From a virus: a stretch of DNA of 64,000 bases. The stretch lies in the IMG/VR virus record IMGVR_UViG_3300029951_000015; one strand, 5' to 3'. This document shows positions 1,278 through 43,507 of the stretch, in pieces. The number at the start of each line of letters is the position of its first letter. Position 1 is the first letter of the stretch. The notes under the pieces are model-generated. The model searched no databases, was not told the DNA's origin, and saw only the letters and a list, made by a program, of their open reading frames with translations. The position numbers were made by a program, and so were the translations under genes.

Positions 1278-2276
1278 TCAGGTGTAAATATCGTTCAGCT
1301 TTCCTAACGATATTTGTTTTCCGGTTCGTGACACGAGGTCACGCAGCGTTATTTTCCCTGCTCTGTACAGCGCCGCGCGCCCCACTCCCAGGATCTCGTC
1401 CTGCTCAGTTTTGCTCTTACCATCCAACCACTTCTCGGCGCTAAGGCCGCTCGATGGTTTTCCGTCCATGCTGTTTTCTTCTAGACCCACTTCGGAATAG
1501 TGCCGCATGATCGGAACAGTTGCGCACCTGCATCCGAAGTGAAACGGCGCTCCGCCATTGAACGGCAGGGTCGTTGCGCCCATTGGCGTGCCGTCCACAT
1601 CATACGTTGACCCGTCGTAAGCCAGGCACTGCGCACACGTCCCTGAATCGAGCGTGGCCACTATCTCCAGCCCGAACACGACTGCGCTGTTGGCCTTGAG
1701 CACAGCGTTGCGCGCATCCATCGCGGTGCGTTGCGCGCCCGAGTGGACCAGCGACTCTGCATTATTCAGCGCCGCGGTGAACGGGCTTGTTGGCGCTAAC
1801 AACCTGGCCACCAGCTGCTCCACATCCTCGCCAGCGGTCATGCCGGCGCGAACCGTTGCAACCACCTTAGCCGAAGTGTCGGCCGCCTGAGCAGCCCACC
1901 AATCAGGCACAGCGTGGCCGCCGATCTCCGGGTCGGTCACCGTCAACCGCGGCGTGCGGACCAACTGAGACCCCATCTCTTCGTTGATGGTGGTGACCAC
2001 GAATTTGGCCTCGATCTGCGCCAGCTCCTGCGTCGCGTCTTTCGATGCTGCCGCCAGCTCGGCATACGTGGCGTCTATCTCCGCTCGTGCGGCGGCTATC
2101 ATCTTTGCGTACTCGGCTTTACTGGTTAAGTTCGTGGCCGTGATCAGTGCCACTACGAAAGCCGCCAGTCGGCGCAGCCGGTCTTTGGCGTCGTCCGACA
2201 GGCCGTCCGCGGTCTGGACCAGACGAACTCCGTGGTCAACAAACAGCGCGGCGAGCGCGTCTGATGCGTTAGTCAT
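1278..2276 (-). CDS. head morphogenesis protein (Mu gpF / SPP1 gp7-like)
   Basis: C-terminal CAQCLAYDG...PFHFGCRCATVP motif is typical of the Mu F-like family. Overlaps the portal stop by 8 nt. Confidence 0.7.
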   Translation of the reverse strand: MTNASDALAALFVDHGVRLVQTADGLSDDAKDRLRRLAAFVVALITATNLTSKAEYAKMIAAARAEIDATYAELAAASKDATQELAQIEAKFVVTTINEEMGSQLVRTPRLTVTDPEIGGHAVPDWWAAQAADTSAKVVATVRAGMTAGEDVEQLVARLLAPTSPFTAALNNAESLVHSGAQRTAMDARNAVLKANSAVVFGLEIVATLDSGTCAQCLAYDGSTYDVDGTPMGATTLPFNGGAPFHFGCRCATVPIMRHYSEVGLEENSMDGKPSSGLSAEKWLDGKSKTEQDEILGVGRAALYRAGKITLRDLVSRTGKQISLGKLNDIYT

Positions 2277-3777: not shown

Positions 3778-5186
3778 TAGATATTCAGTCCTGTGACAAC
3801 CATTGTTTTGCGCTTGGTGCTGCAGCGATATCGCAGCACATCAGCGATGTGGTCCTCGGCTTCTGTGTCGAGGTCACCATCTTTTGCTTCGTTCCGGGGC
3901 AGGACTGGCAACGTGCGGATTGTATGCCCGCACGTAGCAAAAACATAGAGTCCTGGCAGTTCATTTCCTTTACCTTGCTGCAACATCTTTCGGAGTACTT
4001 CCCAACCATTCTTGCGACTGCCGGGCGACTTGTCCGATTTCGTCCAACGGATATAGTTCGGCGCACGCGCCATGTCGTCCGCAATGCTCGTGTTGTTGAT
4101 CACGTCGCTGATCGCGTTGTCGGCCGGCCCCGGATGCACGATGCGACGCATCTCCACGTCCCGCTGCCGAACACCGCGAGCAATCTCGGTGTTGATCATG
4201 CGGCAACCCTCGTTCGGCTTCCCGTTCCAGCCGTACCATTCCGAGATAACGAAGATGGAGCCGCGCGGGAAGTGACGCATTGTGCCGTCAGCCAACACAG
4301 CAGGTGTGCCGTCCGACTCCGCGAACCAAAGGACAGCGAATGGCTTGGACGTGCCCCAGTCAAAGCCGCGGTCGATACGCCAGCTCTGAGGTATGGTGAA
4401 TGGCTCCAGAACGTGCTTTGCCCGCTCCCACACGTCATCAAACATCCCACCTGCTACGATGTCCCAGTCGCCGTCGCGCATGGCGCGGATCAGCGATTCG
4501 TTGCCCAGCCCTTCCAAACGCTCTATGTAATCCGGATCGGTCTCAGCCAGCGTCGGGTTATCTGACAGTTTCGCGGGGATGTACTGGCGCAGCAGGCCGC
4601 CCTCCTTCTTTGTCTGCTTGCGGATTGTCATGGGCGAAGCCATGTCGACGAATGCCGCCTTTACCCAGTTGTGGCCCATGCCGCCTGGGTTCGAGCCACT
4701 AATCACGCGAGGGAACCTGCCCTTGTACTCGTCCGGCACGCGCAGCGCTCCGAGCCGCATCCGGCCGCGCAGGTAGCGATAGATCGACTCGGTAAAGTGA
4801 GTCAGCTCGTCAATCATGAGGACGTGTATTTCCGCACCTTGGTACTTGTATTTGTCTTTCTCGTACTGGCAGTGACATAGGAAAATCTTCGCGCCGTTCC
4901 AAAACTCGATGTAGTTCTTGCCGTAGTTGATCTTGCAGTGCTTGCTATCCACCAGCTCTTTGAGCAGCATCGGAAAGCCGGTCACGCCTTCCATGTGGTT
5001 CTTAGCCAAGTCGTCCGACAGCCTGCGGAAGATGTAGACCTGCAAGCCCGGAATGCCGAAGCACCAGATGATCGCGGCGCAGCGCATCAGGTGCGACTTT
5101 CCACCTCCGGCCGCTCCACCGTAAAGAATCTCCGTGGCGATGCTGAGAAACGCGTCTGTCTGCCGCTTGTGGAGATTTAAGTCCAA
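3777..5186 (-). CDS. terL: terminase large subunit
   Basis: TTG start with AAGGA upstream. Walker A GGAAGGGKSH, Walker B-like VLMIDELTH, and a C-terminal nuclease-like half. 469 aa. Confidence 0.85.
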   Translation of the reverse strand: MDLNLHKRQTDAFLSIATEILYGGAAGGGKSHLMRCAAIIWCFGIPGLQVYIFRRLSDDLAKNHMEGVTGFPMLLKELVDSKHCKINYGKNYIEFWNGAKIFLCHCQYEKDKYKYQGAEIHVLMIDELTHFTESIYRYLRGRMRLGALRVPDEYKGRFPRVISGSNPGGMGHNWVKAAFVDMASPMTIRKQTKKEGGLLRQYIPAKLSDNPTLAETDPDYIERLEGLGNESLIRAMRDGDWDIVAGGMFDDVWERAKHVLEPFTIPQSWRIDRGFDWGTSKPFAVLWFAESDGTPAVLADGTMRHFPRGSIFVISEWYGWNGKPNEGCRMINTEIARGVRQRDVEMRRIVHPGPADNAISDVINNTSIADDMARAPNYIRWTKSDKSPGSRKNGWEVLRKMLQQGKGNELPGLYVFATCGHTIRTLPVLPRNEAKDGDLDTEAEDHIADVLRYRCSTKRKTMVVTGLNI

Positions 5187-6403: not shown

Positions 6404-6630
6404 CAAAAATCTCCTGGAGCGTTGACAGGCTTGGTTTTCGGCTGCAACTCGAACTCTTCGAACGCCGCGGCGAAGTTGCCGGTTTCCTTGTCGAGCAGCA
6501 TGAAGTCGCACTTGACGCGCGCCGGCTCGCCTGCCTCCAGGACGATCTCCAACTTGGAGACCAGGGGCGGCAAGCCGAGCGCTTTGATAAGTGTTTGTGA
6601 AATAGCTTCGGACGTGGCGAGATTACGCAC
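6403..6630 (-). CDS. hypothetical protein
   Basis: 75-aa ORF overlapping the terS stop by 8 nt, co-oriented. Confidence 0.45.
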   Translation of the reverse strand: MRNLATSEAISQTLIKALGLPPLVSKLEIVLEAGEPARVKCDFMLLDKETGNFAAAFEEFELQPKTKPVNAPGDF

Positions 6631-7348
6631 CTTGTGGGTCCTGCACGACCTGCTGCGGAGTAGCCGTCGCGCCGGCCAGCGTCACGTTCAGCGTCGGTCC
6701 GTTGCTGGCGATCTCGCCTGAATGCTCGACCTTATCCTTGAACATGCCGAGATGACGGCCCAACAGCTCCAACACCTTGACCTGGTCGTGGGTCTTCATC
6801 TCCAGGCCATCGCGCCCGGCCTTGACGCCGGCATAGAGCATTTTCGCGCCCTCCCCCATCTTGCGGGTGTCTTGCGCGTGGATCTCGCCCTTACCCTCGC
6901 CTTTGCACTCCGGGCACGCGGGATTGGGGTCTCGGTCCCTGCTGTAACCGACGCCGCCCGATTGCACCGGCTGCGGCCAGCTGCGCTTCGCCGCCTCTTC
7001 GCAGGCGCGCTCGTACTCGGCGTCAGTCCATTGGTAGCGATAATTGGTGCCGTAGCAGTACCGGCACGCGGTGCGGCGGTACTGTACGACCTCATTGACA
7101 TCAGTGGTGGCGATGGCCCACAGCCGGGCTACAACCTCGTCCTGCGTAGGCTCAAGACGCTTGGCGCGCTTCTCGACCAGGTGGTTGATGTAGCTCTGGA
7201 CATGCTCCAGAACAATCGTCGTGCAGGCGGCCGAAGACGGGTCCGCGTAGCCGGCGCGGCGCGCCGCGGCGGTCATGTTCAGGTCGAGGACGTATTCCTC
7301 GGCAAACTTCCGCTGCTTCCCCGTGAACAGTCTAAAATCGTAGCCCAC
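6623..7348 (-). CDS. terS: terminase small subunit with internal zinc-ribbon insertion
   Basis: N-terminus FTGKQRKFAEEYVLDLNMTAAARRAGYADPSSA and C-terminal KVLELLGRHLGMF match the Terminase_2-type small subunit. The middle carries CRYCYG...CPECKGEG. Confidence 0.75.
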   Translation of the reverse strand: MGYDFRLFTGKQRKFAEEYVLDLNMTAAARRAGYADPSSAACTTIVLEHVQSYINHLVEKRAKRLEPTQDEVVARLWAIATTDVNEVVQYRRTACRYCYGTNYRYQWTDAEYERACEEAAKRSWPQPVQSGGVGYSRDRDPNPACPECKGEGKGEIHAQDTRKMGEGAKMLYAGVKAGRDGLEMKTHDQVKVLELLGRHLGMFKDKVEHSGEIASNGPTLNVTLAGATATPQQVVQDPQGA

Positions 7349-9027: not shown

Positions 9028-9330
9028 ATGACAACCAGCACCGCCCCCGGAATCAAATTTACCGTAGTCGCACGCCGCTGGTTCCAACCGACCTACGGCA
9101 ACACGTATCATTCGGTTCGAATTTACGACGCGGAAAACAAGGAAATAGCGCATATCCCGTTTGAGTACGGGTACGGCGATCAGGCGCTTGGCACCGCTGG
9201 CGATTGGTTAGTTAGTCAAGGTCTTGTTGCAGCGCCCAAGTCAGGTAGCACTCAATCGACCCTTTGGGCGCGGGAAGAAGCTGGGATTGCGTATCATGTA
9301 TCAGACGTATCGCGCAAAAAAGACCTGTGA
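9028..9330 (+). CDS. hypothetical protein
   Basis: 100-aa ORF, first gene after promoter copy 2. RRWFQPTYGNTYHSVRIY motif; function unknown. Confidence 0.5.
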   Translation: MTTSTAPGIKFTVVARRWFQPTYGNTYHSVRIYDAENKEIAHIPFEYGYGDQALGTAGDWLVSQGLVAAPKSGSTQSTLWAREEAGIAYHVSDVSRKKDL

Positions 9331-9342
9331 GCGTCAGAACTA

Positions 9343-9381
9343 AAACCAAGCCCGGTATATCCGGGCTTAGGGCATTAGGAA
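9343..9381 (+). promoter_or_regulatory. 39-nt intergenic hairpin element, copy 1
   Basis: AAACCAAGCCCGGTATATCCGGGCTTAGGGCATTAGGAA has an 8-bp stem and no U-tract. Near-identical copy at 9749. Confidence 0.5.
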
Positions 9382-9407
9382 ACCCCTAAATTACTGGATG
9401 CTACGAA

Positions 9408-9734
9408 ATGACCGATTCACGATATAACGGATTCAAAAATTACGAAACGTGGAATGTGAACCTGTGGATTGCGAATGAGGAAAGTTCGTATCGGCGCTGG
9501 ACGGATCGCGCCGAGACGTTGGTAAAGGAAAGCGCGCTTACCGAAACTAACGACGAGTTAGCACGCACAGCAGCTATTAGCACGCTCGCCGACGAGTTGA
9601 AAGACGCGCATACGGAAGAAATGCCGGAAGTAACGGGCGTCTACTCTGATCTACTGACAGCGGCATTGCAATCCGTCGATTGGCATGAAGTCGCGGCAGA
9701 CTTGGCCGGTGATGTGAAAATAGACCGCGACTAG
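9408..9734 (+). CDS. hypothetical acidic protein
   Basis: 108-aa ORF. N-terminal FKNYETWNVNLWIANEE motif, acidic C-terminal half. Confidence 0.5.
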   Translation: MTDSRYNGFKNYETWNVNLWIANEESSYRRWTDRAETLVKESALTETNDELARTAAISTLADELKDAHTEEMPEVTGVYSDLLTAALQSVDWHEVAADLAGDVKIDRD

Positions 9735-9748
9735 CGCCCTACCCGCTC

Positions 9749-9787
9749 AAACCAAGCCCGCTATACGCGGGCTTAGGGCATTAGGAA
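9749..9787 (+). promoter_or_regulatory. 39-nt intergenic hairpin element, copy 2
   Basis: AAACCAAGCCCGCTATACGCGGGCTTAGGGCATTAGGAA. The stem differs from copy 1 by a compensatory G/C to C/G swap. Confidence 0.5.
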
Positions 9788-9810
9788 GTCACCGAACAGG
9801 AACAGAGAAA

Positions 9811-10107
9811 ATGCAGACCTTTCAAATGCACCTTATAGACGGAACCAAGGTTAAGACCGAGTGCCGCAGATTCTCGCATTACGTAGGCGCATACCGGTAC
9901 TGGTTCGCGCTACATCAGGAAAGAGGCGATGCTGTGCCTACAGTCTCTCACTTCGAATCCGGGAAACGCGTTTGTCTGTCTAAAATCGGCGCTATCGTCA
10001 ATTATTCTAGAACCGATGAACTCACTGCGGCGCGTCAGGCTATCGACGCCCTGGTTGATAAGGTCGGCGCTCAGAAAGTCCGCAGCGTCTTGGCTGCGTC
10101 GTCATGA
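9811..10107 (+). CDS. hypothetical protein
   Basis: 98-aa ORF with AGGAA upstream. Its stop overlaps the next start (ATGA). Confidence 0.5.
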   Translation: MQTFQMHLIDGTKVKTECRRFSHYVGAYRYWFALHQERGDAVPTVSHFESGKRVCLSKIGAIVNYSRTDELTAARQAIDALVDKVGAQKVRSVLAASS

Positions 10108-10409
10108 CCATGTACCGCACCTTGGAAGAACGTATTAAGTTTGATGCGGGCCTGACAATCGGCGTGCATCCTGTGACATTCCAGCATGGCGAGAGGTATC
10201 TGCGCGCCCTGGTCGATATCGGTGCGCGCGGTAAAGTTTCCGCACTGATCGAACCCGACGAATCCGACATGTACTCATCTTGGTGGCAGGTTAAAGGCGA
10301 TACGACGCTCCCTAAAGGTGCCGTGATTGTGTGGGGCGCACGTGATCCCGAATTGATTAAGCAGTTCGACAGCCCGGTGGCGACTATTTCGATAGTGCGC
10401 GGAGTTTAA
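10104..10409 (+). CDS. hypothetical protein
   Basis: 101-aa ORF, ATGA-coupled to the upstream gene. Confidence 0.5.
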   Translation: MTMYRTLEERIKFDAGLTIGVHPVTFQHGERYLRALVDIGARGKVSALIEPDESDMYSSWWQVKGDTTLPKGAVIVWGARDPELIKQFDSPVATISIVRGV

Positions 10410-10414
10410 TGTAA

Positions 10415-10466
10415 GGGTTTATACTTACTTGCTAGTAAACTATAAATACGGCATTATTAGTTTTAT
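10415..10466 (+). promoter_or_regulatory. family promoter box, copy 3
   Basis: GGGTTTATACTTAC-TTGCTA-GTAAACTATAAATACGG-CATTAT-TAG. Confidence 0.5.
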
Positions 10467-10520
10467 AGTCCCGCACACGTAAGCGCGCTATGATAAGCCC
10501 GTGCCTTTTAGGACATGGCA

Positions 10521-10856
10521 ATGAACCCTAACCTGAGATTTACTATGTCTACAATGGTTTTTGATACCCTGAGCTACGCTGACGCCCTGGAGGAGTCGGG
10601 ATTTACCCCGCAACAGGCCAAGGGCCAAGCGCACGCAATGAAGGTTCTGATTGAGGATCAGATTGCGAGCAAGTCCGACCTTGCATCGACCGAGGGAACC
10701 CTTAAACTCGCCCTATCCGCAAGCGAAGGCGCTCTGAAACTCGCGATTGCCGAAAGCAAAAACGAGACGATTAAGTGGGTTGTGGGGATCGTGTTAAGCG
10801 CAGCGGCTGTGCAGCTATCCGTCATTACCGGGCTTCTGTTGCACTTGGCGAAGTAG
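10521..10856 (+). CDS. DUF1640-like coiled-coil protein with C-terminal TM helix
   Basis: ATG 10521 has better spacing from AGGA than ATG 10515. VFDTLSYADALEESGFTPQQAKGQAHAM resembles DUF1640. The tail WVVGIVLSAAAVQLSVITGLLLHL is hydrophobic. Confidence 0.45.
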   Translation: MNPNLRFTMSTMVFDTLSYADALEESGFTPQQAKGQAHAMKVLIEDQIASKSDLASTEGTLKLALSASEGALKLAIAESKNETIKWVVGIVLSAAAVQLSVITGLLLHLAK

Positions 10857-10898
10857 GCACACCGAAGGGTAACGCGTGCACGCGTTACCTCAGTCCTG

Positions 10899-11168
10899 CT
10901 AGAACCGGTCAGGAACACTGCGCAGCGACAAGCGCCGGGTCGCAGGTACTTCGATGGTGCGCGACGTGTTGGACGGAAGCGGACGCACACAGCCCTTACG
11001 CTCAAGCGTGTAAAAAGTACCGAAGCCGCGAATCATTACAGTACCTTCTGCGGCTTCCTCTTTGATTGTCTCAAACGCAATCGTTAAAGCCCGCTTAATC
11101 AGCTCTTCGTCAGCGCCCGTTTCCTGGACTATCTTGTCAATAAGTCTGCGCGGCGGTGATGTGATCAT
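10899..11168 (-). CDS. HU/IHF-like DNA-bending protein
   Basis: Trimmed to ATG 11168, which has GGGAG 7 nt upstream. 89 aa. IRGFGTFYTLERKGCVRPLPSNTSRTIEVPATRRLSLR resembles the HU/IHF beta-arm. One of only two minus-strand genes in the right arm. Confidence 0.6.
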   Translation of the reverse strand: MITSPPRRLIDKIVQETGADEELIKRALTIAFETIKEEAAEGTVMIRGFGTFYTLERKGCVRPLPSNTSRTIEVPATRRLSLRSVPDRF

Positions 11169-11264
11169 TGCTAAACTCCCTAAGCCTAATTTCCCGGATT
11201 GTAGCATTGAAAGCCCTCTATTGTGCCGGTTTCGTTTCTAAAGGGCACCAAGTTTATAGATTTG

Positions 11265-11305
11265 AAAGGTTGCTGTAAAACTATAAATACGGTATTGTTA
11301 GTGTA
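11265..11305 (+). promoter_or_regulatory. family promoter box, copy 4
   Basis: TTGCTG (11270-11275), TAAAACTATAAATACGG, TATTGT (11293-11298), TAG. Confidence 0.5.
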
Positions 11306-11363
11306 CACGTTTTGCCTTAAATCTAGAAGATTTTTCTACGCACACCCACCTGAGCGAGAACAA

Positions 11364-11555
11364 ATGCCAAGCAATGCCGAAATACGCGAAAACGGCCGGA
11401 AACTCGCAGCGATGCCTGACACCTTGGCTGAGGTGCGGCGAGCGCTAAAACTGTGCGTCAAGGATATGCGCGCCGCTTTGCGCACCCAATCCACTACATC
11501 GATCAGTGCCCCAACTCTGCGGGCCGCAGTCGCAGCGCTCGCCGCTTCGAAGTGA
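11364..11555 (+). CDS. hypothetical protein
   Basis: Track ORF 11223..11555 trimmed to ATG 11364, because the long form would read through the promoter box. 63 aa. Confidence 0.35.
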   Translation: MPSNAEIRENGRKLAAMPDTLAEVRRALKLCVKDMRAALRTQSTTSISAPTLRAAVAALAASK

Positions 11556-11619
11556 CAAAAGATACCCAAATCGGACCGCACCAACATTACATTAAGCTTA
11601 CAGCGTATTACGGCCGTTT

Positions 11620-12114
11620 AACTGATCGGTTTTCCTACCAGTACGATAAACACCCTATTTATAGGCCCTAACTGATCGGTTTTCCTACCAGTTGGTGCCT
11701 AATATTTGAGCACAAAACACCAACTGGTAGGTTTTCCTACCAGTTAGACACTCGATTTCTCCTAACTGATCGGTTTTCCTACCAGTTGGTGCTTAAATTT
11801 TAGGCAGAAAACACTAACTGATCGGTTTTCCTACCAGTTCGCAGCACTTTTCCCCTCCCTCCCAACTGATCGGTTTTCCTACCAGTTCGTTAATTCGGCC
11901 TCCTAACTGATCGGTTTTCCTACCAGTTAGCTAATTTTAGGGCACCAACTGATCGGTTTTCCTACCAGTTAGCTCGTTTCGCCCTCCTAACTGATCGGTT
12001 TTCCTACCAGTTAGCGTCATCTGCCTAAATTTTAAGCACCAACTGATCGGTTTTCCTACCAGTTCGCAGCGATATATACGCTATTTATGGTACTGATCGG
12101 TTTTCCTACCAGTT
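11620..12114 (+). repeat. array of 11 direct 24-bp repeats (iteron or centromere-like), helically phased
   Basis: AACTGATCGGTTTTCCTACCAGTT starts at 11620, 11670, 11722, 11764, 11816, 11864, 11905, 11947, 11989, 12041 and 12091. Spacings are 41-42, 48, 50 or 52 bp. Non-coding. Confidence 0.9.
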
Positions 12115-12326
12115 CAAATAGCCCGCAAAGCCTTACCCCATATAGAAAGTGAGCTTTTCTGTTACTTATTTAAAGGTACACTTTTATGGATACCCTGGAA
12201 AAATACACAAAAAGAGGTTTCTAAATCACCTATTTTTGTCTCTAATCGTCTTTTCTAGGACGGCCACCCCCTTTACGTACCTTTCCGACCGCTGCGAACT
12301 CCCCGGCAAGCTTACAAACTGTAAGA

Positions 12327-12357
12327 AACGAAAAGCGCTTTACAAAGCGTTTTCGTT
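12327..12357. promoter_or_regulatory. dispersed 31-bp palindrome, copy a
   Basis: AACGAAAAGCGCTTTACAAAGCGTTTTCGTT. A-tract, GC core, loop, GC core, T-tract. Confidence 0.6.
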
Positions 12358-12399
12358 AATTTACAGTCCAAACCTGCCCAATCTTCTTGCACCCAAAAT

Positions 12400-12948
12400 A
12401 TGCAGCCTTACCACTCAGACGGCATTGATTATGTGTTCACTTACACCGACCCCAATAGCCGCGATCATTTCATTGTCGCAGAGGTCGCAAACGCGGAAAT
12501 CGTCTTCGCTTTTGCCGAGATCGCTGCGGCTCTTGGCTATGCACATACCGGCCGCATGTCACCGCACGAGTCCGAGCATGCGCGTATCGTCAAGATGCAG
12601 CGCCGCGAGCGGCCGGTAAAGGCCGTCACCCTGGCAGGTGTTCTAACCTGCACACCGCGAAGTGCAACCGCTGTGCACTTCGCCGACTGGATGCGCGCTG
12701 TTGTATTCCCTGTGCTTGACCTGCCCGAGTTCCCGGAAAACGACAGCCATGTGGCCAAGTTCCAGCTGGCCTATATCAACACCCAGCTGGAACAGCTGCA
12801 GAACCGCGCAGAAGCCGCTCGCAGCGTCATAGCAGCCTACGCGCCGCACACTGACGCCGAAGCCGCCCAGGAGCCGCCAAGCGATCCGCAATCCCCCGAG
12901 CGCGTCAATGCTTTGCTTGATGTCGCTTTCGGCGTGAAACGTGCCTAG
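12400..12948 (+). CDS. Bro-N-like domain protein (antirepressor-like)
   Basis: IVFAFAEIAAALGYAHTG ... AVHFADWMRAVVFPVL resembles the Bro-N pattern (DVa.aLGY ... F..Wv...VlP). 182 aa. Confidence 0.45.
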   Translation: MQPYHSDGIDYVFTYTDPNSRDHFIVAEVANAEIVFAFAEIAAALGYAHTGRMSPHESEHARIVKMQRRERPVKAVTLAGVLTCTPRSATAVHFADWMRAVVFPVLDLPEFPENDSHVAKFQLAYINTQLEQLQNRAEAARSVIAAYAPHTDAEAAQEPPSDPQSPERVNALLDVAFGVKRA

Positions 12949-13234
12949 ACGCCGTCTAGTCCTCGAAACCGTGCCTGGCACGCGGATTCGCTACATCACC
13001 CACGGCGGTAAGCCGCTATTCGTCGCCTCAGACGTTGCACGCGAAGCCGGATACAAAACCCCGGCCGCAGCGACTAGCACCTGGACCGGCTCGCTAGTCC
13101 AGTTGACCGAGACTGGCAAACAGTGGCGCTTTGTTGACGCGGACCAGGCCGCCGTAGCGCTCTACCGTTCGAAAGCCCCTGCAGCACATGCTGTTTCCGC
13201 TACGTTACAACTTTTTAACGAAAACGCTCTGTAA
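12941..13234 (+). CDS. Bro-N-like domain protein (short)
   Basis: GTG start overlapping the upstream gene by 8 nt. IRYITHGGKPLFVASDVAREAGYKTP matches the Bro-N N-terminal pattern. Its stop lies inside palindrome copy b. Confidence 0.4.
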   Translation: MPRRRLVLETVPGTRIRYITHGGKPLFVASDVAREAGYKTPAAATSTWTGSLVQLTETGKQWRFVDADQAAVALYRSKAPAAHAVSATLQLFNENAL

Positions 13235-16977: not shown

Positions 16978-17044
16978 AATGTTCCTCCCGTCACGCACTG
17001 TCACATCGGTAATAGAGCTGAAATACACTTTAGGACTCCAAAAT

Positions 17045-17428
17045 ATGACCAAACCGTTCAATCTTGAAGCCGCCAAGCGCGGCGATCCGGTCGTAACCCG
17101 TGAGGGTCTACCCGTTCGATTCCTGGCTCACGAGCCAACGTTCTTATACACGAGCCGCGTCCTTACCGTGGTCAAAGGCAGAACCAATGTCTTGTTTACC
17201 GGCGAGGACGGCACCTACAGAACAGACAAGGTCAAGCACCCTGACGACCTGTACATGGCGACTGTCAAGCGCACCGTCTACGTGAACGTGATCCGCTCAG
17301 CCCGTGGAGAGCTGATTGCGGAAGTGCGCGAGAAAGAAGCCGAAGCGCACCGAGTAGCGCTCGACGGCTTCATGCAGGAAGGCAGTACGTATATCGCAAC
17401 CGCCGCACCCGTCGAGATCGAAGAATAA
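17045..17428 (+). CDS. hypothetical protein
   Basis: ATG 17045 gives an MTKPFNLEAAKRGDPVVTREG N-terminus. The track start at 16979 is also possible. Confidence 0.45.
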   Translation: MTKPFNLEAAKRGDPVVTREGLPVRFLAHEPTFLYTSRVLTVVKGRTNVLFTGEDGTYRTDKVKHPDDLYMATVKRTVYVNVIRSARGELIAEVREKEAEAHRVALDGFMQEGSTYIATAAPVEIEE

Positions 17429-22769: not shown

Positions 22770-23327
22770 ATGAAATATTTACGCTGTTTCGCGCTGATAG
22801 TCGTGAATACGACGCGCTGGCTACTCGCGGCGACCCTGAACTTCGCCTTTACACTGATCGCCTACCCTGCCGCCCTGCTTCTCCCCGCTTTCGCCACGTC
22901 GACCGGCTATCTCCCGACATGGTTGTGGTGGTTTCAGACGCCCGACAACTCGCTCGACGGCGATACAGCGTTTCAAGCCTCACACGCGTGGTTTACGCCC
23001 CCTCAGACCGGCTGGCGACGTTACGTCAACCGGATATGGTGGTTGATGCGCAATCCCGCCTACGGCTTCGGTATCGACGTTGCAGGGGTGTCTGTAACGG
23101 CAACGCCCAAACTGTTCGGCACACTCCCTCTCGGCGGCGCATTGACGCAGAGCGGTTGGTACTTCGCCTGGACCTCAAACGCGTGGCAGTTTTACGGCGT
23201 GTGGATCTACAGCAGCACACGCTGCGCGCGCTTGAACCTGGGCTGGAAGCTCTGGCAAGTGCCCGGCGTATGCCAGCTAGTGCTGAGTCCCCTTCCGTTC
23301 GTCAGTCTGCCGGCGATCCCTGCGTAA
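22770..23327 (+). CDS. integral membrane protein
   Basis: 185 aa with GGAG upstream. Two N-terminal hydrophobic helices, then a Trp-rich WLWWFQTPDNSLDGD motif. Confidence 0.5.
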   Translation: MKYLRCFALIVVNTTRWLLAATLNFAFTLIAYPAALLLPAFATSTGYLPTWLWWFQTPDNSLDGDTAFQASHAWFTPPQTGWRRYVNRIWWLMRNPAYGFGIDVAGVSVTATPKLFGTLPLGGALTQSGWYFAWTSNAWQFYGVWIYSSTRCARLNLGWKLWQVPGVCQLVLSPLPFVSLPAIPA

Positions 23328-27124: not shown

Positions 27125-27155
27125 AGCCCCTTCCTTGCCGAAGGGGCTTTTATTT
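27125..27155 (+). terminator. rho-independent terminator
   Basis: AGCCCCTTC-CTTGCC-GAAGGGGCT followed by TTTTATTT. Confidence 0.7.
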
Positions 27156-27416
27156 ATGACTAAACCTGTATGGCACGAAGGCCCTCCCCCGTTCATTGGC
27201 TGGTGGATTGCGTCGCGCTTCAATAACCTATCTGCGTGGCGCTGGTGGAATGGCTATGAGTGGTCAAGCCCAGCACCCTCCGACTGCACACGCAAGGAAG
27301 CAGCCGAAGCAGCGAGCAAGCCCGCAAACATCCGAGCAACTATCTATTGGACCGACCATTGGCCTGATGACGCACCCGTACCGCGCCCCACTCCGCCGAC
27401 TGATCAACTGTTTTAA
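27156..27416 (+). CDS. hypothetical Trp-rich protein
   Basis: ATG 27156 chosen because the track TTG start at 27135 lies inside the terminator stem. 86 aa. Confidence 0.35.
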   Translation: MTKPVWHEGPPPFIGWWIASRFNNLSAWRWWNGYEWSSPAPSDCTRKEAAEAASKPANIRATIYWTDHWPDDAPVPRPTPPTDQLF

Positions 27417-27422
27417 TCAACA

Positions 27423-27486
27423 CATATAGCGTCAGTGCTATATAGCGTGCTATATGCAATGCTACACATACACGGTGCTATATAGC
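27423..27486. repeat. cluster of GCTATATAGC palindromes upstream of parA
   Basis: Perfect 10-bp palindromes at 27437-27446 and 27477-27486. Degenerate copies at 27423-27430, 27449-27458 and 27461-27470. Confidence 0.6.
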
Positions 27487-27510
27487 ATGATGTATCAGCG
27501 TAGTGGAATG

Positions 27511-27545
27511 CCAACACAAAACTATAAATACGGCATTTATCACTT
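27511..27545 (+). promoter_or_regulatory. family promoter box, copy 7 (weak -35)
   Basis: CAACAC-AAAACTATAAATACGG-CATTTA, about 70 nt upstream of parA. Confidence 0.4.
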
Positions 27546-27609
27546 AAACGTTTGACTCGCCGAACTGACGCCGCTAATCTGGTAGATGGGTTAATCACAT
27601 GGAGCGGTG

Positions 27610-28260
27610 ATGCTATATACGTTTGGTGCAGAGAAGGGTGGAGTGGGTAAGTCCACGCTCGCGGAAGAGATGGCCGTGGAGCGTGCGAGTAGGGGATTTG
27701 AGACCCTACTGGTCGACCTAGACCCGCAGCGCACGACAACTGAGTGGGCCGCCGCGCGAGTCTATAACGAGGTGGTTCCACAGATCGTGTGTGTGTCGAA
27801 GGGTAAGAGCCTTACGAAAGAGCTTATCAAGATGCGCGAGGCGTTCGACACAGTGATCGTGGATATTGGCGGTAAAGACACACGGGACTTGCGCGAGGCT
27901 ATTGTCATTGCAGACAAGACCATCGTACCGATCAAGCCGTCGCCGGCAGACCTACGCACGTTCCCGGACTTCGCAGACTTTATCCGGCGCATCAACGCTG
28001 AGATTGAGACGCCCAAAGACGTGTGCGTGGTGCTCAACATGGTCAACGGGTCGAGCAACCAGTTCAAACGGTTCACGGACGGATTCGCGGAGTTCAGCGA
28101 CTGTATGAAGCTGCTGGATTCGCGTGTTTGCGAGCGCGTCGCGTATCAGAACGCATATGAGGCAGGGAAGGGCGTTCGTGAGCTGTCTCGTAGCGAGTAT
28201 GACCCCAAAGCCGCAGCTGAAATTGAGAGCCTTTATCTGGAGATTTTCGGAAATGAGTAA
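27610..28260 (+). CDS. parA: ParA-type partition ATPase (small, type Ib-like)
   Basis: Deviant Walker A GAEKGGVGKST and LLVDLDPQ. About 216 aa with no N-terminal HTH. GGAG lies 5 nt before ATG 27610. Confidence 0.8.
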   Translation: MLYTFGAEKGGVGKSTLAEEMAVERASRGFETLLVDLDPQRTTTEWAAARVYNEVVPQIVCVSKGKSLTKELIKMREAFDTVIVDIGGKDTRDLREAIVIADKTIVPIKPSPADLRTFPDFADFIRRINAEIETPKDVCVVLNMVNGSSNQFKRFTDGFAEFSDCMKLLDSRVCERVAYQNAYEAGKGVRELSRSEYDPKAAAEIESLYLEIFGNE

Positions 28261-28633
28261 GCCCATGACCGCGCGCCCCAGGGCCGCAACGCCGGAAGAG
28301 ACCTTGGCCAAAGTCCAGGGGATTATCAACGAGGTCCCGCCGGCAGCTGAGGCGCTGCCAGCCCCCGCACCTGTAGCAGCCACGCAACAGCAGGAAGCGC
28401 CGCCGGCCGCGGCTCTTGAAGCAGAAACCGCAGCACCGGCAACTGATTGGCGCGTGTTGCCGAAGAAGGTGCCGACGACGCAGTTCAACGTTCGCATTCG
28501 CTCTGATCTGCACGAAGTTTTGAACGAGCTGGCGACATACACGCCAGGCGAAAGCATGACTAAGATAGCTGCGCGTGGAATCGAGACGGAAATCCGGCGG
28601 ATGATGGCAGAACGGGGCATAGAGCTAAAGTGA
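28253..28633 (+). CDS. ribbon-helix-helix centromere-binding partner (ParG-like)
   Basis: ATG 28253 overlaps the parA stop. Pro/Ala-rich linker, then TTQFNVRIRSDLHEVLNELA...SMTKIAARGIETEIRRM, which fits a strand-helix-helix layout. Confidence 0.5.
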   Translation: MSKPMTARPRAATPEETLAKVQGIINEVPPAAEALPAPAPVAATQQQEAPPAAALEAETAAPATDWRVLPKKVPTTQFNVRIRSDLHEVLNELATYTPGESMTKIAARGIETEIRRMMAERGIELK

Positions 28634-28677
28634 GTGCTCACTAACAAAGGTTTTGCCCCTTTTCTGCTAAACCGGTT

Positions 28678-28831
28678 TTCGTCTTTAGAGTGATCGTGAT
28701 ATTCGCCTTTTGACTGATGGTTTACAAGAGCAGAATCGCTGGTTTTCGTCTTTTGACTGATGGCTCTTTTAAAGTAGTTTCGAGGTTTGAGAGAAGGGCG
28801 CGGACGCTGCGAATATCGCCTTTAGGCTGAT
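28678..28831 (-). repeat. four inverted-orientation iterons
   Basis: TTCGYCTTTWGRSTGAT at 28678, 28702, 28745 and 28816 is the complement of the direct iterons downstream. Confidence 0.7.
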
Positions 28832-28850
28832 GATTCAAGGGGTAAACCAT

Positions 28851-28910
28851 TTATAAACATTAAAGACGATTAGGGGGCTTTCAGAAATTCTGGAAGCCCT
28901 TTGTTTATAA
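28851..28910. promoter_or_regulatory. AT-rich nested dyad between the iteron blocks
   Basis: TTATAAACA (28851-28859) pairs with TGTTTATAA (28902-28910). These enclose GGGCTTTCAG-AAATT-CTGGAAGCCC. Confidence 0.5.
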
Positions 28911-28930
28911 GGCTTTACAGGAAATGCGTT

Positions 28931-29159
28931 GTCAGGCTAAAGGCGAATATGGATGCGCCTAAAGGCGAGTTTTTGTCAGGCTAAAGGCGACATTGATCAG
29001 TCTTCAGACGAAAACCGTCAGTCATAGGGCGAATGCAGCGATCAGCCTAAAGGCGAGGTTACTCGGATCAGTCAAAAGACGAATCTAGACATCAGCCATA
29101 AGGCGAAAGAGTGCATCAGTCAAAAGGCGAACATCAAGTGCCATCAGTCTTAAGGCGAA
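28931..29159 (+). repeat. ten direct 17-bp iterons (oriV-like)
   Basis: RTCAGYCWWAAGGCGAA-like units start at 28931, 28953, 28976, 28996, 29017, 29041, 29067, 29091, 29115 and 29143. Spacing is 20-28 bp. The array ends 69 nt before the initiator gene. Confidence 0.8.
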
Positions 29160-29227
29160 CATTTCCGCTTTAATTTGATTTGGACCCCGTGCTAGAGTCC
29201 TGAAAACCAACACGCAAGAGGCCAGCG

Positions 29228-30160
29228 ATGGAAGACGCACGGCAGTTTATGGACAGGGTACACGAGGTTGCTCAGCGGGCTTCGAAGTCGGTAAAAGCTA
29301 AGCCTGAGAAAGCCTTGAAACTAAAGGTGATCCAGCAGTTGATGCTCTGGTCTGACAAGGTGAGGGGGCTTCCTAACTCGCTGGCTCGATGCGCCTTGTT
29401 CACTGTGGGAAACCGCAATGAACCGCGCCGCATGTACGCACGAGAGGTCATAGCGTCGCTGCAGGGAATCGTGATCCAGTACACGGGTGAGGAGCTGCGG
29501 CAGGACGACGAGGACGTGTTCCTTCAGATCGTCCACTTGGGTCGGATGGTTGATGTCGGAGAGCCGTTCGTCGTCACGGGCCACATGGTTCTGACGGCGC
29601 TAGGGTGGGGCAGGTCGTCGGACAAGTACAAACGCCTCCTGGAATCCATCGGCAGACTCTCTGAGGGCACCATATGGGTCACGTACACCAACGAGGACGA
29701 AGTGGAGGCGAGCGTCGCTGCCGGCGCGGCAGCGCCTAAGAGAAAACGGAACGGTTACAACGGCCGCTTGATCGCTAAGTTGAAATGGCGAGAAGAGGGC
29801 GAAGAGTCCGAACAGGGGAAACACGTCAAATGGCAGTTCCGTCTTGACCCCGACATCATTAATCTGTTCGGCAAGGATGAATTCACGCTAGTTGACTGGG
29901 AGCAGCGCCTGTCGCTCACGTCGCTGGAGAAGTGGCTGCACAGTTTTTATTTCACACATCGCGAGCCTTACGCCTACAAGACATCGACGCTGTACACGCT
30001 CTGTGGCAGCAGCTGCGCCACACTGGCCAAGTTTCGCTACATGCTCAAGGGCGCACTCAGGAACCTGGAAGAGTCCGGCTTCTTCGAGTCGGCTTCGATA
30101 GACCCGCGGACGGATTTAGTGCAGGTTAAACGTAGGCGTCAGACCGCAATCGCAGCCTGA
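29228..30160 (+). CDS. trfA: plasmid replication initiator, TrfA-like
   Basis: VRGLPNSLARCALFTVGN, IVIQYTGEELRQDDEDVFLQIVHL and WLHSFYFTHREPYAYKTSTLYTLCGS match my memory of TrfA-family blocks. Immediately downstream of the iterons. Confidence 0.6.
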   Translation: MEDARQFMDRVHEVAQRASKSVKAKPEKALKLKVIQQLMLWSDKVRGLPNSLARCALFTVGNRNEPRRMYAREVIASLQGIVIQYTGEELRQDDEDVFLQIVHLGRMVDVGEPFVVTGHMVLTALGWGRSSDKYKRLLESIGRLSEGTIWVTYTNEDEVEASVAAGAAAPKRKRNGYNGRLIAKLKWREEGEESEQGKHVKWQFRLDPDIINLFGKDEFTLVDWEQRLSLTSLEKWLHSFYFTHREPYAYKTSTLYTLCGSSCATLAKFRYMLKGALRNLEESGFFESASIDPRTDLVQVKRRRQTAIAA

Positions 30161-30177
30161 CAATCGAGAGGTATGGA

Positions 30178-30399
30178 ATGACTCAAACGCTAAAGCAGTT
30201 GAAGGACGAACTTCAGGTGCTCCAGGAACGTATTTCGCTGTTAGCTCCCGAGGCGGAGCAGCAGGCGCTCGCCGTAATCCGTGATGACGTGCGGATGTAC
30301 GGCTTCACCGTGGCGCAGGTGTTCGGCATGATTCGAGTGAAGCGTCCGCGTCGCTCGCGCGAGCAGATTGACGCGGATAACGCCGCGGCCGGCAAATAA
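30178..30399 (+). CDS. small coiled-coil protein, possibly like the H-NS N-terminal domain
   Basis: 73 aa. LKQLKDELQVLQERISLL...AVIRDDVRMYGFTVAQVF, then a basic tail. No C-terminal DNA-binding domain. Confidence 0.5.
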   Translation: MTQTLKQLKDELQVLQERISLLAPEAEQQALAVIRDDVRMYGFTVAQVFGMIRVKRPRRSREQIDADNAAAGK

Positions 30400-30692
30400 T
30401 GCTCCGCCGTAGCTATACGCTCGACCCGAGCTACGAGCTTGGAGGCGGATGGCGTCTCAAGCTGTTTGAGGACGGCGTCGAAGCCGGCGGCGGTGTGTTT
30501 CCTGTCACAGTAGACCCGGTCGCCGGGATTGCTTGGTTCAACGGGCTTTCAGAGCAGGATCGGGCGCTGTGGCTGAAAATTGCGGACAGCGCACGTCCGG
30601 TCGAGGCGTGGGTAGCTTACCTAAGCGCCGCGGCTTTCCAAGAAGCAAAGGACGAGGCCGAGTCGTTTGTAGGTTATCAGGTTAACCCTTGA
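30399..30692 (+). CDS. hypothetical protein
   Basis: 97 aa, TAATG 1-nt overlap. Confidence 0.5.
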   Translation: MLRRSYTLDPSYELGGGWRLKLFEDGVEAGGGVFPVTVDPVAGIAWFNGLSEQDRALWLKIADSARPVEAWVAYLSAAAFQEAKDEAESFVGYQVNP

Positions 30693-30726
30693 TAAGTTCG
30701 ATAATTAAGATTATGTAAAATACGAG

Positions 30727-30750
30727 AGCCCCGCCAAGAGCGGGGCTTTT
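30727..30750 (+). terminator. rho-independent terminator
   Basis: AGCCCCGC-CAAGA-GCGGGGCT running into TTTT. Confidence 0.7.
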
Positions 30751-30869
30751 CATAGAGCGCTGAGGACCCTATGAAAAATTATAAGGTGCAATAAATTATA
30801 CGATACGGACGGTTACGTATCCACCCAGCAGCTGTGTACCGATCGATAGCAGAAATGCGTGACAAATAA

Positions 30870-30900
30870 AACGAAAAGCGCTCTACAAAGCGTTTTCGTT
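30870..30900. promoter_or_regulatory. dispersed palindrome, copy d (upstream of parB-like gene)
   Basis: AACGAAAAGCGCTCTACAAAGCGTTTTCGTT, followed by TGTG-TATTAT. Lies 40 nt before the parB-like start. Confidence 0.6.
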
Positions 30901-30939
30901 TGTGTATTATTCGGATACACCCAACCCCAAGGTATCCGA

Positions 30940-31878
30940 ATGGCACAAATACTTTCGATGAAACAGCGCGCCGAAGGGCACGAACCTGGCGTCAAAAAAC
31001 ACTCAAAGTACTACAAGCTGAACCCAGCGCTGCTCCTGATCGAGGAGGGCTTCAATGTGCGAATCGATACGCCGGAGGCGCGCGAGAAAATCGGTAAGAT
31101 GAAGCTAGACATCTTAGCCGGTGCGAGCATGCCGGCAATCGACGTGCGTAACGATGTAGGCGGTTCGTTCGTCGTCGACGGCCATCGGCGCACTACCGCG
31201 TTCCAAGAGCTGATCGCTGAGGGTCACATAATTCTCGAAGTGGACGTGCGCGAGCTTAATGGCAACGCCACTGGTCGCAAGCTCGGCACCGCAGTACCCC
31301 TTTCGCCGGAAGCGCAAGCTTTGGCAGACCGCGTGTTCCATATGCTCGGCACCGCGGAAGGCTCGGAACCCATATCGACGCTGGAACAAGGCATCGGCTA
31401 CCTCAAGCTCGTTAAGATCGGTATATCGCGCGCAGTGATTGCGGCCGAAGAGCACAAGTCGCAGTCGCACGTCGATCAGGCGCTGACGCTCGCCATGTCC
31501 AGTCCAGACGTACATATGCTGGTAGCCCTAGGCAAGGTTCCGGGCCGGGTAGCAATCAAAGCGATCAAGGAGCATGGCAGCGACGCAGGACCGTTCCTGC
31601 AGTCGCTGCTCGATAGATCGAAGAAAGGTAAGCTGACGCAGAAGTCTATCTCTGGAACAGCCCTTCCCCGCAAACTGGCCGACCGCTGCGAAAACACCAT
31701 CCGAACGATTTTCACGCAGTCGTTCGAAATCGCAGCGCGCGTTGCGATTCAAGACGCAAAAGATGAGGATTTCGTGAACGTGCAGATGCCCAAGGCGCAG
31801 CTCCGCGCCCTGCTGGACGCGAACGAAGAAATCGCCAAGGTTCGCACGAAAGCCGGCAGCAGTGCAGCTCCCGCGTGA
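30940..31878 (+). CDS. parB: ParB/KorB-like (ParB N-terminal domain) protein
   Basis: Trimmed to ATG 30940, which has AAGG upstream; the track start at 30859 would read through the palindrome. IDVRNDVGGSFVVDGHRRTTAFQEL matches the ParB/Srx box. Confidence 0.65.
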   Translation: MAQILSMKQRAEGHEPGVKKHSKYYKLNPALLLIEEGFNVRIDTPEAREKIGKMKLDILAGASMPAIDVRNDVGGSFVVDGHRRTTAFQELIAEGHIILEVDVRELNGNATGRKLGTAVPLSPEAQALADRVFHMLGTAEGSEPISTLEQGIGYLKLVKIGISRAVIAAEEHKSQSHVDQALTLAMSSPDVHMLVALGKVPGRVAIKAIKEHGSDAGPFLQSLLDRSKKGKLTQKSISGTALPRKLADRCENTIRTIFTQSFEIAARVAIQDAKDEDFVNVQMPKAQLRALLDANEEIAKVRTKAGSSAAPA

Positions 31879-42562: not shown

Positions 42563-43507
42563 ATGAAACAGGTCTACGTTGAAAAGAAGCTGAACAAGGC
42601 CAACACCGTGTTGGTCGGCATCATGGAATCCATCTCGCGCGAGTACTCTGCAGCGGGATACACCATGACCACTCGACAGCTCTATTACCAGCTCGTTGCG
42701 CGCGACTACATCCCGAACACGCTGCAGGAATACAAGCGCGTCGCATCGATTATCAACGACGCCAAGCTCGCCGGCCTGCTCGACTGGGACGCGTTTGAAG
42801 ATCGCACGCGGGCATTCGAGCGTCGTGGTCACTGGGATAACCCGGAAGACATGGTGCAGGCATGCGCCAACCAGTTCTACGTTGATATGTGGGAAGGACA
42901 GGACCGTCGCGTGTTCGTGATCGTCGAGAAAGAGGCGCTGGTAGGCGTCCTGAATCGCGTCTGCGAACGATTCGACGTTCCGCTGCTCGCAGCTCGTGGC
43001 TACCCCTCTGCAACAGTGCTGCGCGAGTTCGCCGTCTCCGACATGCGAAAGGCCGAACAAGCGGGTCAAGACTGCTTGATCTTGCACCTGGGCGATCATG
43101 ATCCGAGTGGTATTGATATGACGCGCGACTTGCAGGAACGCCTGTCCTTGTTCACCAACTCGCACGTCGACCTGCGGCGCATCGCTTTGAACATGCAGCA
43201 GGTCGAAGCCGAAGACCCGCCGGAAAATCCGGCCAAGATCAGCGACTCGCGCTTTGCAGACTACCAACGCAACTTTGGTGACAGTAGCTGGGAACTTGAC
43301 GCGTTGCCGCCCGAGTTCTTGGACTCGCTGCTAACTGAGCAGATCCGCGAAAACATAGACGAGCCGGTTTGGCGTGAACGCGAAGATGAAATCATTGACG
43401 GCCGCCAGGCGTTGAACGAGGCAGTCGACTACATCGCGAACGGGCTACCTCACTACAAAGACAAGATGACCGGTCGCACGGGTAAGTTTGAATCGGCGCT
43501 GGACTGA
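42563..43507 (+). CDS. Spo11 / topoisomerase VI subunit A-like protein (stand-alone)
   Basis: TTRQLYYQLV resembles the 5Y-CAP R-x-x-Y-Y element. VIVEKEALVGVL, ARGYPS and LGDHDPSGIDM resemble the Toprim E, GxP and DxDPxG elements, in the canonical order. 314 aa. Confidence 0.7.
   Translation: MKQVYVEKKLNKANTVLVGIMESISREYSAAGYTMTTRQLYYQLVARDYIPNTLQEYKRVASIINDAKLAGLLDWDAFEDRTRAFERRGHWDNPEDMVQACANQFYVDMWEGQDRRVFVIVEKEALVGVLNRVCERFDVPLLAARGYPSATVLREFAVSDMRKAEQAGQDCLILHLGDHDPSGIDMTRDLQERLSLFTNSHVDLRRIALNMQQVEAEDPPENPAKISDSRFADYQRNFGDSSWELDALPPEFLDSLLTEQIRENIDEPVWREREDEIIDGRQALNEAVDYIANGLPHYKDKMTGRTGKFESALD

Follow-up and report, generated by a model that had tools for sequence, protein, structure and literature searches.

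The 64,000-nucleotide stretch of IMG/VR virus record IMGVR_UViG_3300029951_000015 analyzed here (the window) covers 73% of the ~87.7-kb genome of an uncultured, siphovirus-like tailed phage from soil metagenomes, and it carries among its phage genes a plasmid-type replication and partition cassette built around a TrfA initiator. Because this plasmid-type cassette is complete and lies in a phage genome without a detectable integrase, the phage is probably a phage-plasmid, and lysogeny as a low-copy plasmid prophage, without integration, is well supported by the gene content. By definition, a phage-plasmid unites phage packaging and virion genes with those of a partition system and a plasmid replicase on a single replicon (PMC7969092), and genes of all three kinds were found in the window and its flanks. 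The functional unit appears to be a self-contained, terminator-bounded maintenance cassette at ~27125-30750, with the order palindromes TGCTATATAGCA, parA, partner gene, inverted iterons, AT-rich spacer, direct iterons and trfA (Table 1). The cassette is complete, its parts are identified, and its architecture is conserved in many independent assemblies; we infer that the cassette is active and the phage temperate.

The earlier note on this DNA, made from the letters alone, had claimed a small ParA with a deviant Walker A motif, a 14-copy iteron origin, an initiator recalling TrfA and the lack of any integrase in 64 kb, and all of these claims were borne out. The product of trfA matched Pfam family PF07042 at 106.6 bits (cut-off 22, E-value = 1.6e-30), and the same family is carried by 120 of 120 TrfA homologues among the matches listed; judged from these profiles, the predicted initiator is unambiguously a TrfA. 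The origin contains 14 copies of a 17-mer (consensus ATCAGTCAAAAGGCGAA) within 480 bp, ten direct and four inverted, and a scan of the whole window with up to three mismatches placed 11 of its 12 matches inside this 480-bp origin. The AT-rich spacer between the two iteron clusters is presumed to be the unwinding region. The lone iteron-like site upstream of the origin may be a chance occurrence (~0.01 expected per window) or a handcuffing site. TrfA relatives in genomes come nearly all from Burkholderiales, with some from Chromatiales (Noviherbaspirillum, Herbaspirillum, Acidovorax, Azohydromonas, Polaromonas), and the matches in isolate genomes lie only on plasmid or chromid-like contigs of Burkholderiales and Chromatiales, without phage genes. 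Since the relatives are mostly from Burkholderiales, the host is most likely a betaproteobacterium of this order.

Comparison with known plasmids revealed that the closest counterparts of the replicon are Burkholderia plasmids. The TrfA proteins of B. glumae and B. cenocepacia plasmids are 48-50% identical to the phage TrfA over 96% of its length, and B. cenocepacia pTY921B (NZ_CP155791) has the same order of centromere-like repeats, parA, small open reading frame (ORF), inverted iterons, AT-rich spacer, direct iterons and trfA, with the AT-rich part of the origin at the same position. The individual parts differ, however: the pTY921B ParA is just 28% identical to the phage ParA, its small ORF is unrelated to the phage partner gene, its iteron sequence is another one, and DnaA-box-like sites are present in pTY921B while none occur in the phage origin. 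Besides these differences in sequence there is one in the carrier of the TrfA replicon, which is a plasmid in the Burkholderiales relatives and a phage genome here.

The combination of TrfA, a small ParA and a KorB-like protein had been read as the logic of RK2 and the incompatibility group P (IncP) plasmids. The phage TrfA is 28% identical to that of IncP-1 plasmid R751 over ~300 amino acids, corresponding to the C-terminal TrfA-33 part (E-value = 5e-29), and RK2 and R751 likewise have 17-bp iterons, with a spacing of ~22 bp. The phage ParA, in contrast, aligns with R751 IncC at the Walker A motif alone (E-value = 2e-4). The nearby ParB-family protein is predicted to adopt the IncP-1 KorB fold at a template-modelling score of 0.65, and its pairwise match to R751 KorB is non-significant (E-value = 2.9). 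No KorB operators (OB, TTTAGCSGCTAAA) with up to one mismatch were found in the whole window, and the ssb-trfA and korA-incC-korB operons of IncP-1 are absent from the phage, where the gene order differs. Membership of IncP was therefore rejected, TrfA being the only homologous protein among R751 TrfA, IncC and KorB, and the IncP logic is limited to TrfA and oriV, the layout and the nearest relatives being those of Burkholderiales TrfA plasmids. The TrfA family is known for its broad host range in IncP-1 plasmids.

The predicted partition system belongs to another family. ParA is small, without an N-terminal helix-turn-helix (HTH) domain, and its deviant Walker A motif reads GAEKGGVGKST. It matched the Pfam families CbiA, AAA_31 and MipZ, phrog_164 (3e-38) and NCBIfam model NF041546, 'ParA family partition ATPase' (6e-37, model positions 6-201 of 203, below the curated cut-off), and among solved proteins its best homologue is TP228 ParF (PDB 4dzz). 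The partner gene appears to be translationally coupled to parA through their overlap, and its product, for which just four homologues were found among 5.8 billion proteins, is presumed to be a centromere-binding protein, ParG/omega-like. It has a variable, alanine- and proline-rich N-terminus predicted to be disordered and an invariant C-terminus, TQFNVRIRSDL..SMT.IAARGIE.EI, with a strand-helix-helix-like segment. An overlapping ribbon-helix-helix (RHH) partner had been proposed for this position; the overlap was confirmed, while the RHH fold was matched weakly, the top PDB matches being the omega RHH repressor at E-values of 0.77 and 1.3 (phmmer). The AlphaFold2 model of the partner is poor (predicted local distance difference test, pLDDT, 59) and has a disordered N-terminus and two C-terminal helices; neither Foldseek with this low-confidence model nor a profile search of the partner gave a match. 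The C-terminus resembles an RHH protein, which is a candidate fold.

Perfect copies of the 12-bp palindrome TGCTATATAGCA lie at 27436 and 27476 and degenerate copies at 27423, 27448, 27460 and 27488, with another across the parA start at 27611, and copies with zero or one mismatch were found, over the window, in the cluster upstream of parA only. Because a ParF-type small ATPase occurs together with palindromes upstream and a small partner gene of its own that is translationally coupled to it, the partition system is best classed as a putative type Ib, ParF/ParG-like system. It shares with TP228 ParF-ParG and pSM19035 delta-omega the small, deviant-Walker ParA, a small partner encoded downstream, flexible at its N-terminus and with a strand-helix-helix-like C-terminal segment, and repeats ahead of the operon. 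Neither parH nor the omega heptads resemble the phage palindrome TGCTATATAGCA, and pSM19035 omega, the weak best PDB match, makes RHH no more than a candidate fold for the phage partner.

Both ends of the cassette are marked by predicted terminators, the left one a strong hairpin, and none of the nine sites of a 31-bp promoter/operator motif found throughout the phage genome lies inside it. The cassette shares the orientation of the long early/middle operon in which it lies. The 97-amino-acid ORF that follows trfA has ~70% DNA identity to a hypothetical gene of Ralstonia solanacearum plasmids.

TrfA is not confined to this phage. At least five other phage-like contigs encode one (L020, L022 and L025 from IMG/VR, L073 from JGI and L074 from Logan), 41-53% identical to that of the window. 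ParA is encoded beside trfA in L020, L022, L025 and L073 and was not seen in L074; iterons were checked and present in the same four contigs, and the three from IMG/VR have the same cassette order as the window. In every one of these contigs TrfA is surrounded by genes of phage type (ligase, CobS/CobT, DnaB, a lysis cassette or a Mu-like baseplate), and the phage backbones differ, as only ParA, TrfA and ligase, out of 36 window proteins tested, are common to them. L022 and L025 encode CobS/CobT, DnaB, primase and ligase, and the phages closest to them are siphoviruses of 112-120 kb, Rhizobium RHEph10 and the nickie type of Pseudomonas. L073 (64 kb) encodes holin, SLT, Rz, ParA, a DUF927 primase and an SNF2 helicase; its TrfA is 51% identical, and it has the same inverted-plus-direct iteron layout, with an iteron, ATCGGTCAGAAGGCGAT, identical at 15 of 17 positions.

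The partition operon has a relative of its own on L070 (JGI Ga0597970_000013, 58.9 kb; positions 9190-12600), where ParA is 39% and the partner 57% identical, and three TGCTATATAGCA palindromes lie upstream of parA, the only copies there with zero or one mismatch. L070 also carries a divergent CI-like HTH_3+S24 repressor, a Cro-like gene, RecT, SSB, lysozyme and tail fibres; by its genes it is plainly temperate and is probably another phage-plasmid. Its par operon is paired with different replication genes, an HTH_36 protein and a 375-amino-acid protein, from which it appears that par and rep modules move independently between elements. A further analogous partner, on L075 in a conjugative-plasmid context, carries Pfam Antitox_RHH. 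Conservation of protein and DNA site together, for TrfA and iterons in L073 and for the par operon and TGCTATATAGCA in L070, speaks for the predicted cis sites being genuine.

Three observations concern other elements met in these searches. On L074 (Logan DRR294288_394, 25.4 kb), the TrfA, 53% identical to that of the window, stands at 136-2433 beside a KfrA_N protein, of an IncP-associated family, with a lysis cassette and genes for a Mu-like baseplate as immediate neighbours of the two; the contig represents a myovirus that carries a TrfA replicon. The 55-kb linear 'plasmid' RHOApg of Rhodovastum atsumiense (NZ_OW485608, L018), which shares the portal family of the phage at 41% identity, encodes a complete myovirus-type phage together with ParA, RepA, a ParB N-terminal domain protein, HigBA and an Arc-like protein; this is a phage-plasmid that was deposited as a plasmid and, with its RepA, ParA and myovirus tail, was rejected as the same element. 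P. aeruginosa pHPA0008-2, which also shares the portal family, was rejected as well, being a lambdoid phage with CI/Cro.

From these parts a mode of persistence can be proposed. By homology, TrfA would bind the 14 iterons, melt the AT-rich spacer between the clusters and recruit the host helicase and replisome for theta replication, and the surplus iterons by the trfA promoter would give autoregulation and copy-number control by handcuffing. The partner protein would bind the TGCTATATAGCA palindromes upstream of parA, a site that would serve as both operator and centromere, and the ParF-type ParA would segregate the copies. The cassette would thereby allow persistence as a low-copy circular plasmid prophage for which an integrase is unneeded, and lytic replication would be left to the PolA, primase, helicases and ligase of the phage.

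Several lines of evidence favour such a plasmid prophage. With Pfam and PHROGs on essentially every ORF, neither the window nor its readable flanks, together ~94% of the genome, yielded an integrase, serine recombinase, transposase or excisionase; this search combined precomputed Pfam hits on contigs over the window and flanks with Pfam and PHROG scans of the long ORFs without an assigned family and of 66 further ORFs. The same conclusion is favoured by an origin designed for copy control, by the complete partition operon with its nearest homologue in a temperate phage, by the terminator insulation of the cassette and by the recurrence of TrfA cassettes in other phage contigs. The known phage-plasmids P1, N15 and SSU5/pHCM2 likewise join a tailed phage to a plasmid replicase and a partition system, with no integrase (PMC7969092, PMC12977533). 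The SSU5 group, moreover, consists of large siphoviruses with their own DNA-replication genes, as here; the phage of the window falls in none of the named groups, shows no DNA similarity to any INPHARED phage and differs in its TrfA-type replicon and in that no repressor or addiction module was found. Two adjacent ORFs at 12400-13234 (plus strand) gave weak Bro-N matches, the only lysogeny-flavoured matches of the window, which count for the plasmid prophage, and the weak PHROG anti-repressor matches probably concern the same ORFs. Complete sets of replication genes are also known from phage-plasmids of the SSU5 type.

Other results weigh against a plasmid prophage. No CI/Cro pair, S24 peptidase or other lysogeny repressor was recognised among ~97 ORFs, where the screen gave a weak HTH_11 match and most of the small ORFs could be placed in no family; the ~18 kb of head and tail genes read beyond the window held no CI-type repressor either. 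Searches of the window for a toxin-antitoxin system, a multimer-resolution recombinase and a dif/cer-like XerCD site found none, and no DnaA box (TTATCCACA, up to one mismatch) was found between 27300 and 29300, unlike RK2 oriV. The backbone, with PolA, primase, two helicases, ligase, SbcCD and ThyA, is like that of many virulent phages. Headful packaging would give circularly permuted assemblies just as well. The phage occurs only in JGI, ENA and Logan metagenomes, and a portal search of 185,579 species genomes revealed no close relative. Lysogeny as a low-copy plasmid, as proposed in the earlier note, is kept as the best explanation of a cassette without an integrase, in the more guarded form of a conclusion from gene content with no repressor recognised.

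The alternative that survives best, although we consider it unlikely, is that the phage is virulent or enters a transient carrier state. TrfA and the iterons would then form an early theta origin of lytic replication, like lambda O and its ori, and the task of ParA and its partner would be to place or separate the replicating genomes in a prolonged infection, with no part in prophage upkeep. A full replisome and nucleotide-metabolism gene set would suit such a phage, but an origin with 14 iterons in two opposed clusters by the trfA promoter has the copy-control design of low-copy plasmids, and this design is identical in real Burkholderia plasmids. The failure to recognise a repressor or lysogeny gene would be explained too, whereas a ParF/ParG-type operon with a centromere has no known role in lytic growth, and the closest par homologue belongs to L070, a phage with a CI/S24 repressor. 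The position of the cassette, co-oriented in the long early/middle operon, again agrees with lytic expression; its terminator insulation and lack of the phage promoter motif, on the other hand, fit expression while the phage genes are off. A last point in favour of a virulent phage is that the closest phages to the CobS/CobT-bearing contigs L022 and L025, RHEph10 and the nickie type, are generally treated as lytic.

It is improbable that the cassette is a recently captured plasmid passenger, no longer or not yet functional, that contributes nothing to the life cycle. Gene exchange between phages and plasmids is common (PMC7969092), and the TrfA and par modules have been shuffled independently, with a different rep gene in L070 and a conjugative-plasmid context in L075. 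A non-functional passenger, however, is at odds with the intact state of all cassette ORFs, with iterons and palindromes that are well conserved and match those of the relatives, with a cassette G+C of 0.53-0.55, near that of the remaining genome, and with an identical TrfA in 26 collection blocks. That the phage/plasmid junction is an assembly chimera is scarcely credible: the source is metagenomic, but the junctions on both sides recur in JGI, ENA and Logan assemblies that are independent and stem from different samples, and TrfA stands in the same phage context on at least six independent contigs.

The earlier note had extended the maintenance block to a ParB/KorB-like gene at 30940-31878. 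A gene of the ParB family is indeed present there, but the bidirectional terminator at 30727-30747, between the trfA operon and this gene, cuts it off from the narrower unit described above, and it has its own copy of the 31-bp promoter/operator motif (30870-30900). The expected ParBc match was missing, as the protein had no direct Pfam match; it matched phrog_1033 at 1.6e-30, and a 12-sequence family profile matched Spo0J at 6.5e-16, Noc at ~1e-12 and KorB at 1.6e-4, the Spo0J, ParB and Noc matches spanning 1e-16 to 1e-11. Its AlphaFold2 model (pLDDT 81) found ParB, Noc and KorB folds at a probability of 1.0, and its homologues carry PF17762 HTH_ParB. These homologues occur in integrative temperate and virulent phages (Achromobacter Mano, Burkholderia Mica, BcepF1, Pseudomonas phi2, MD8, LESphi3) and in small-hypothetical-gene stretches, adjoined by neither ParA nor Rep, of plasmids that are conjugative or mobilisable, and the closest longer relative lies in a phage early region, beside an anti-Thoeris Tad3 gene. 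Because it stands outside the terminator-bounded cassette and its homologues have no neighbouring ParA, we treat the gene as a putative orphan ParB-CTPase-type protein of the phage early region, outside the maintenance block. A partition or KorB-like silencing role may still apply to it.

Two sets of repeats elsewhere in the window deserve mention beside this protein. In a gene-free 500 bp at 11620-12114 (plus strand) there are 11 same-orientation copies, eight of them identical, of a 24-nt imperfect palindrome (AACTGATCGGTTTTCCTACCAGTT) at a spacing of 41-52 bp, where none is expected by chance, interleaved with AT-rich CCTAAATTTTAGG-like palindromes. The array adjoins a lone minus-strand HU-like gene (10899-11168) and is conserved in two independent assemblies, and its motif is absent from IMG/VR. 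It is similar in layout to F-plasmid sopC and could be a centromere (a possible parS array), a lytic origin or an operator array. A link between this array and the ParB-family protein found no support, with no similar array near the ParB homologues in L061, L062 and L072. The 31-bp near-palindrome AACGAAAAGCGCTNTACAAAGCGTTTTCGTT, for which again none is expected by chance, occupies nine intergenic sites (7747, 12327, 13217, 19913, 30870, 33137, 39626, 49082 and 55669), and at promoter-like sites the -35-like hexamers fall on its loop, T(C/T)TACA. In addition to preceding the ParB-family gene, it is found at the divergent late/early region, on the terS side, and it looks like a phage-wide promoter/operator or terminator.

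A blastn search of the block against INPHARED (50,697 GenBank phage records) found no DNA similarity to any of them, a tblastn search of TrfA against the same records found no match, and the portal is at most 44% identical to that of any INPHARED phage. The suggestion of an undescribed phage-plasmid lineage agrees with these results; the lineage is not unique in its replicon, given the other phage-like contigs with TrfA. Phage-plasmids are increasingly viewed as vehicles joining phage and plasmid gene pools, and, to our knowledge, the typed groups are nearly all from clinical Enterobacteria, Vibrio, Acinetobacter, Bacillus and Mycobacterium. The present candidate comes from peat- or soil-type metagenomes, has a TrfA replicon and is prevalent over many samples. 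Phage-plasmids are a known, diverse class with variable plasmid modules (PMC7969092, PMC12977533), and our literature search found no report of a TrfA-based one; most likely the kind of element is known, and its TrfA replicon is of a type that we have not found reported for such an element.

If active, the cassette would offer a natural minireplicon and partition cassette for poorly tractable soil Burkholderiales and a test case for terminator-insulated plasmid modules plugged into phage genomes, and it would be a reason to include TrfA profiles in phage-plasmid detection tools. A speculative joint reading, to which we give little weight, is that TrfA cassettes are a recurrent, undescribed route to a plasmid prophage, taken by tailed phages that are unrelated to one another and infect Burkholderiales of soil and fresh water (the 88-kb siphovirus of the window, nickie/RHEph10-like phages of 110-116 kb, a Mu-like myovirus and others), with a two-layered system here, in which the TrfA/ParF-ParG cassette would stand outside the phage regulon and the ParB-CTPase, acting on the sopC-like 24-bp array or on the nine 31-bp operators, would be a KorB-like silencer replacing CI.

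Exact-protein look-ups led to metagenomic contigs of 87,593, 87,721 and 87,753 bp, the longest on record being 87,827 bp. Their start points differ, the MuF gene lying at ~18.8 kb in one and at ~55.3 kb in another, so the genome assembles as a circle, as would be seen with a circular molecule and also with DNA that is circularly permuted by headful packaging. Terminase, portal and capsid had been listed for the phage; TerL, TerS, portal and a MuF-like head protein are encoded, and of the major capsid gene just the first ~100 codons fall inside the window. From ~7.4 to 64 kb nearly all genes are on the plus strand, among them those for an SNF2 helicase, a 959-amino-acid primase-like protein, PolA with 5'-3' exonuclease, a Dda-like helicase, an ATP-dependent ligase, SbcCD and ThyA. 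The 23.7 kb beyond the window hold genes for scaffold, capsid, tail tube, tape measure, a gpJ-like protein and fibres. The gene reading covers ~94% of the genome, including ~18 kb of head and tail genes outside the window and excluding a ~5.4-kb stretch from the tape-measure to the gpJ-like gene, which after subtraction of the rest of both genes leaves ~2.5 kb, a size that matches the usual minor tail genes. No tRNAs and no Rfam families were found in the window. DUF8224, tried as a synteny anchor, led to distant phages only.

Table 1. Coordinates of the maintenance cassette and of other features in the window.
Feature	Position	Strand	Remarks
Left terminator-like hairpin	27125-27148	+	AGCCCCTTC-loop-GAAGGGGCT, then T run; ends upstream phage operon
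Candidate parC/operator	27421-27495		12-bp palindrome cluster TGCTATATAGCA, upstream of parA
parA	27610-28260	+	ParF-type small Walker ATPase, 216 amino acids; Pfam, phrog_164, NF041546, PDB ParF
Partner gene	28253-28633	+	126 amino acids; 8-nt overlap with parA; called in all assemblies
Four inverted iterons	28678-28831	-	At 28678, 28702, 28745, 28815
AT-rich spacer	28835-28925		60-65% A+T; imperfect palindrome GGGCTTTCAGAAATTCTGGAAGCCC, flanks inverted TTTATAAACA / TGTTTATAA
Ten direct iterons	28931-29159	+	17 bp, spacing 21-28 bp, reaching trfA promoter region
trfA	29228-30160	+	Replication initiator, 310 amino acids; short TrfA-33 form
Two small ORFs	30178-30692	+	73 and 97 amino acids; closely 3' of trfA; no function assigned
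Right bidirectional terminator hairpin	30727-30747		AGCCCCGC-CAAG-AGCGGGGCT, then TTTT
ParB/Noc/KorB-family protein	30940-31878	+	N-terminal ParB/Srx domain, DGHRR box, plus HTH
Lone iteron-like site	22842-22858	-	ATCAGTGTAAAGGCGAA, 2 mismatches, in DUF7338 gene; 6 kb upstream of origin
TerS	6623-7348	-
TerL	3777-5186	-
Portal	2269-3777	-
MuF-like head protein	1278-2276	-

Two further proteins were recorded. The 314-amino-acid protein at 42563-43507 (plus strand) matched phrog_6247, 'DNA topoisomerase', at 1.6e-122 and weakly Pfam DUF2399, which is Toprim-like, as in Topo VI-A and JetD; no solved homologue was found by sequence, and a relationship to tyrosine recombinases was ruled out by the DUF2399/Toprim-like match. 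The 149-amino-acid protein at 16979-17428 is on record in two contigs, while the flanking genes are found in 26-41 collection blocks. Because this protein is far rarer on record than its neighbours, the early region at ~12.3-17 kb may vary between strains of the phage.

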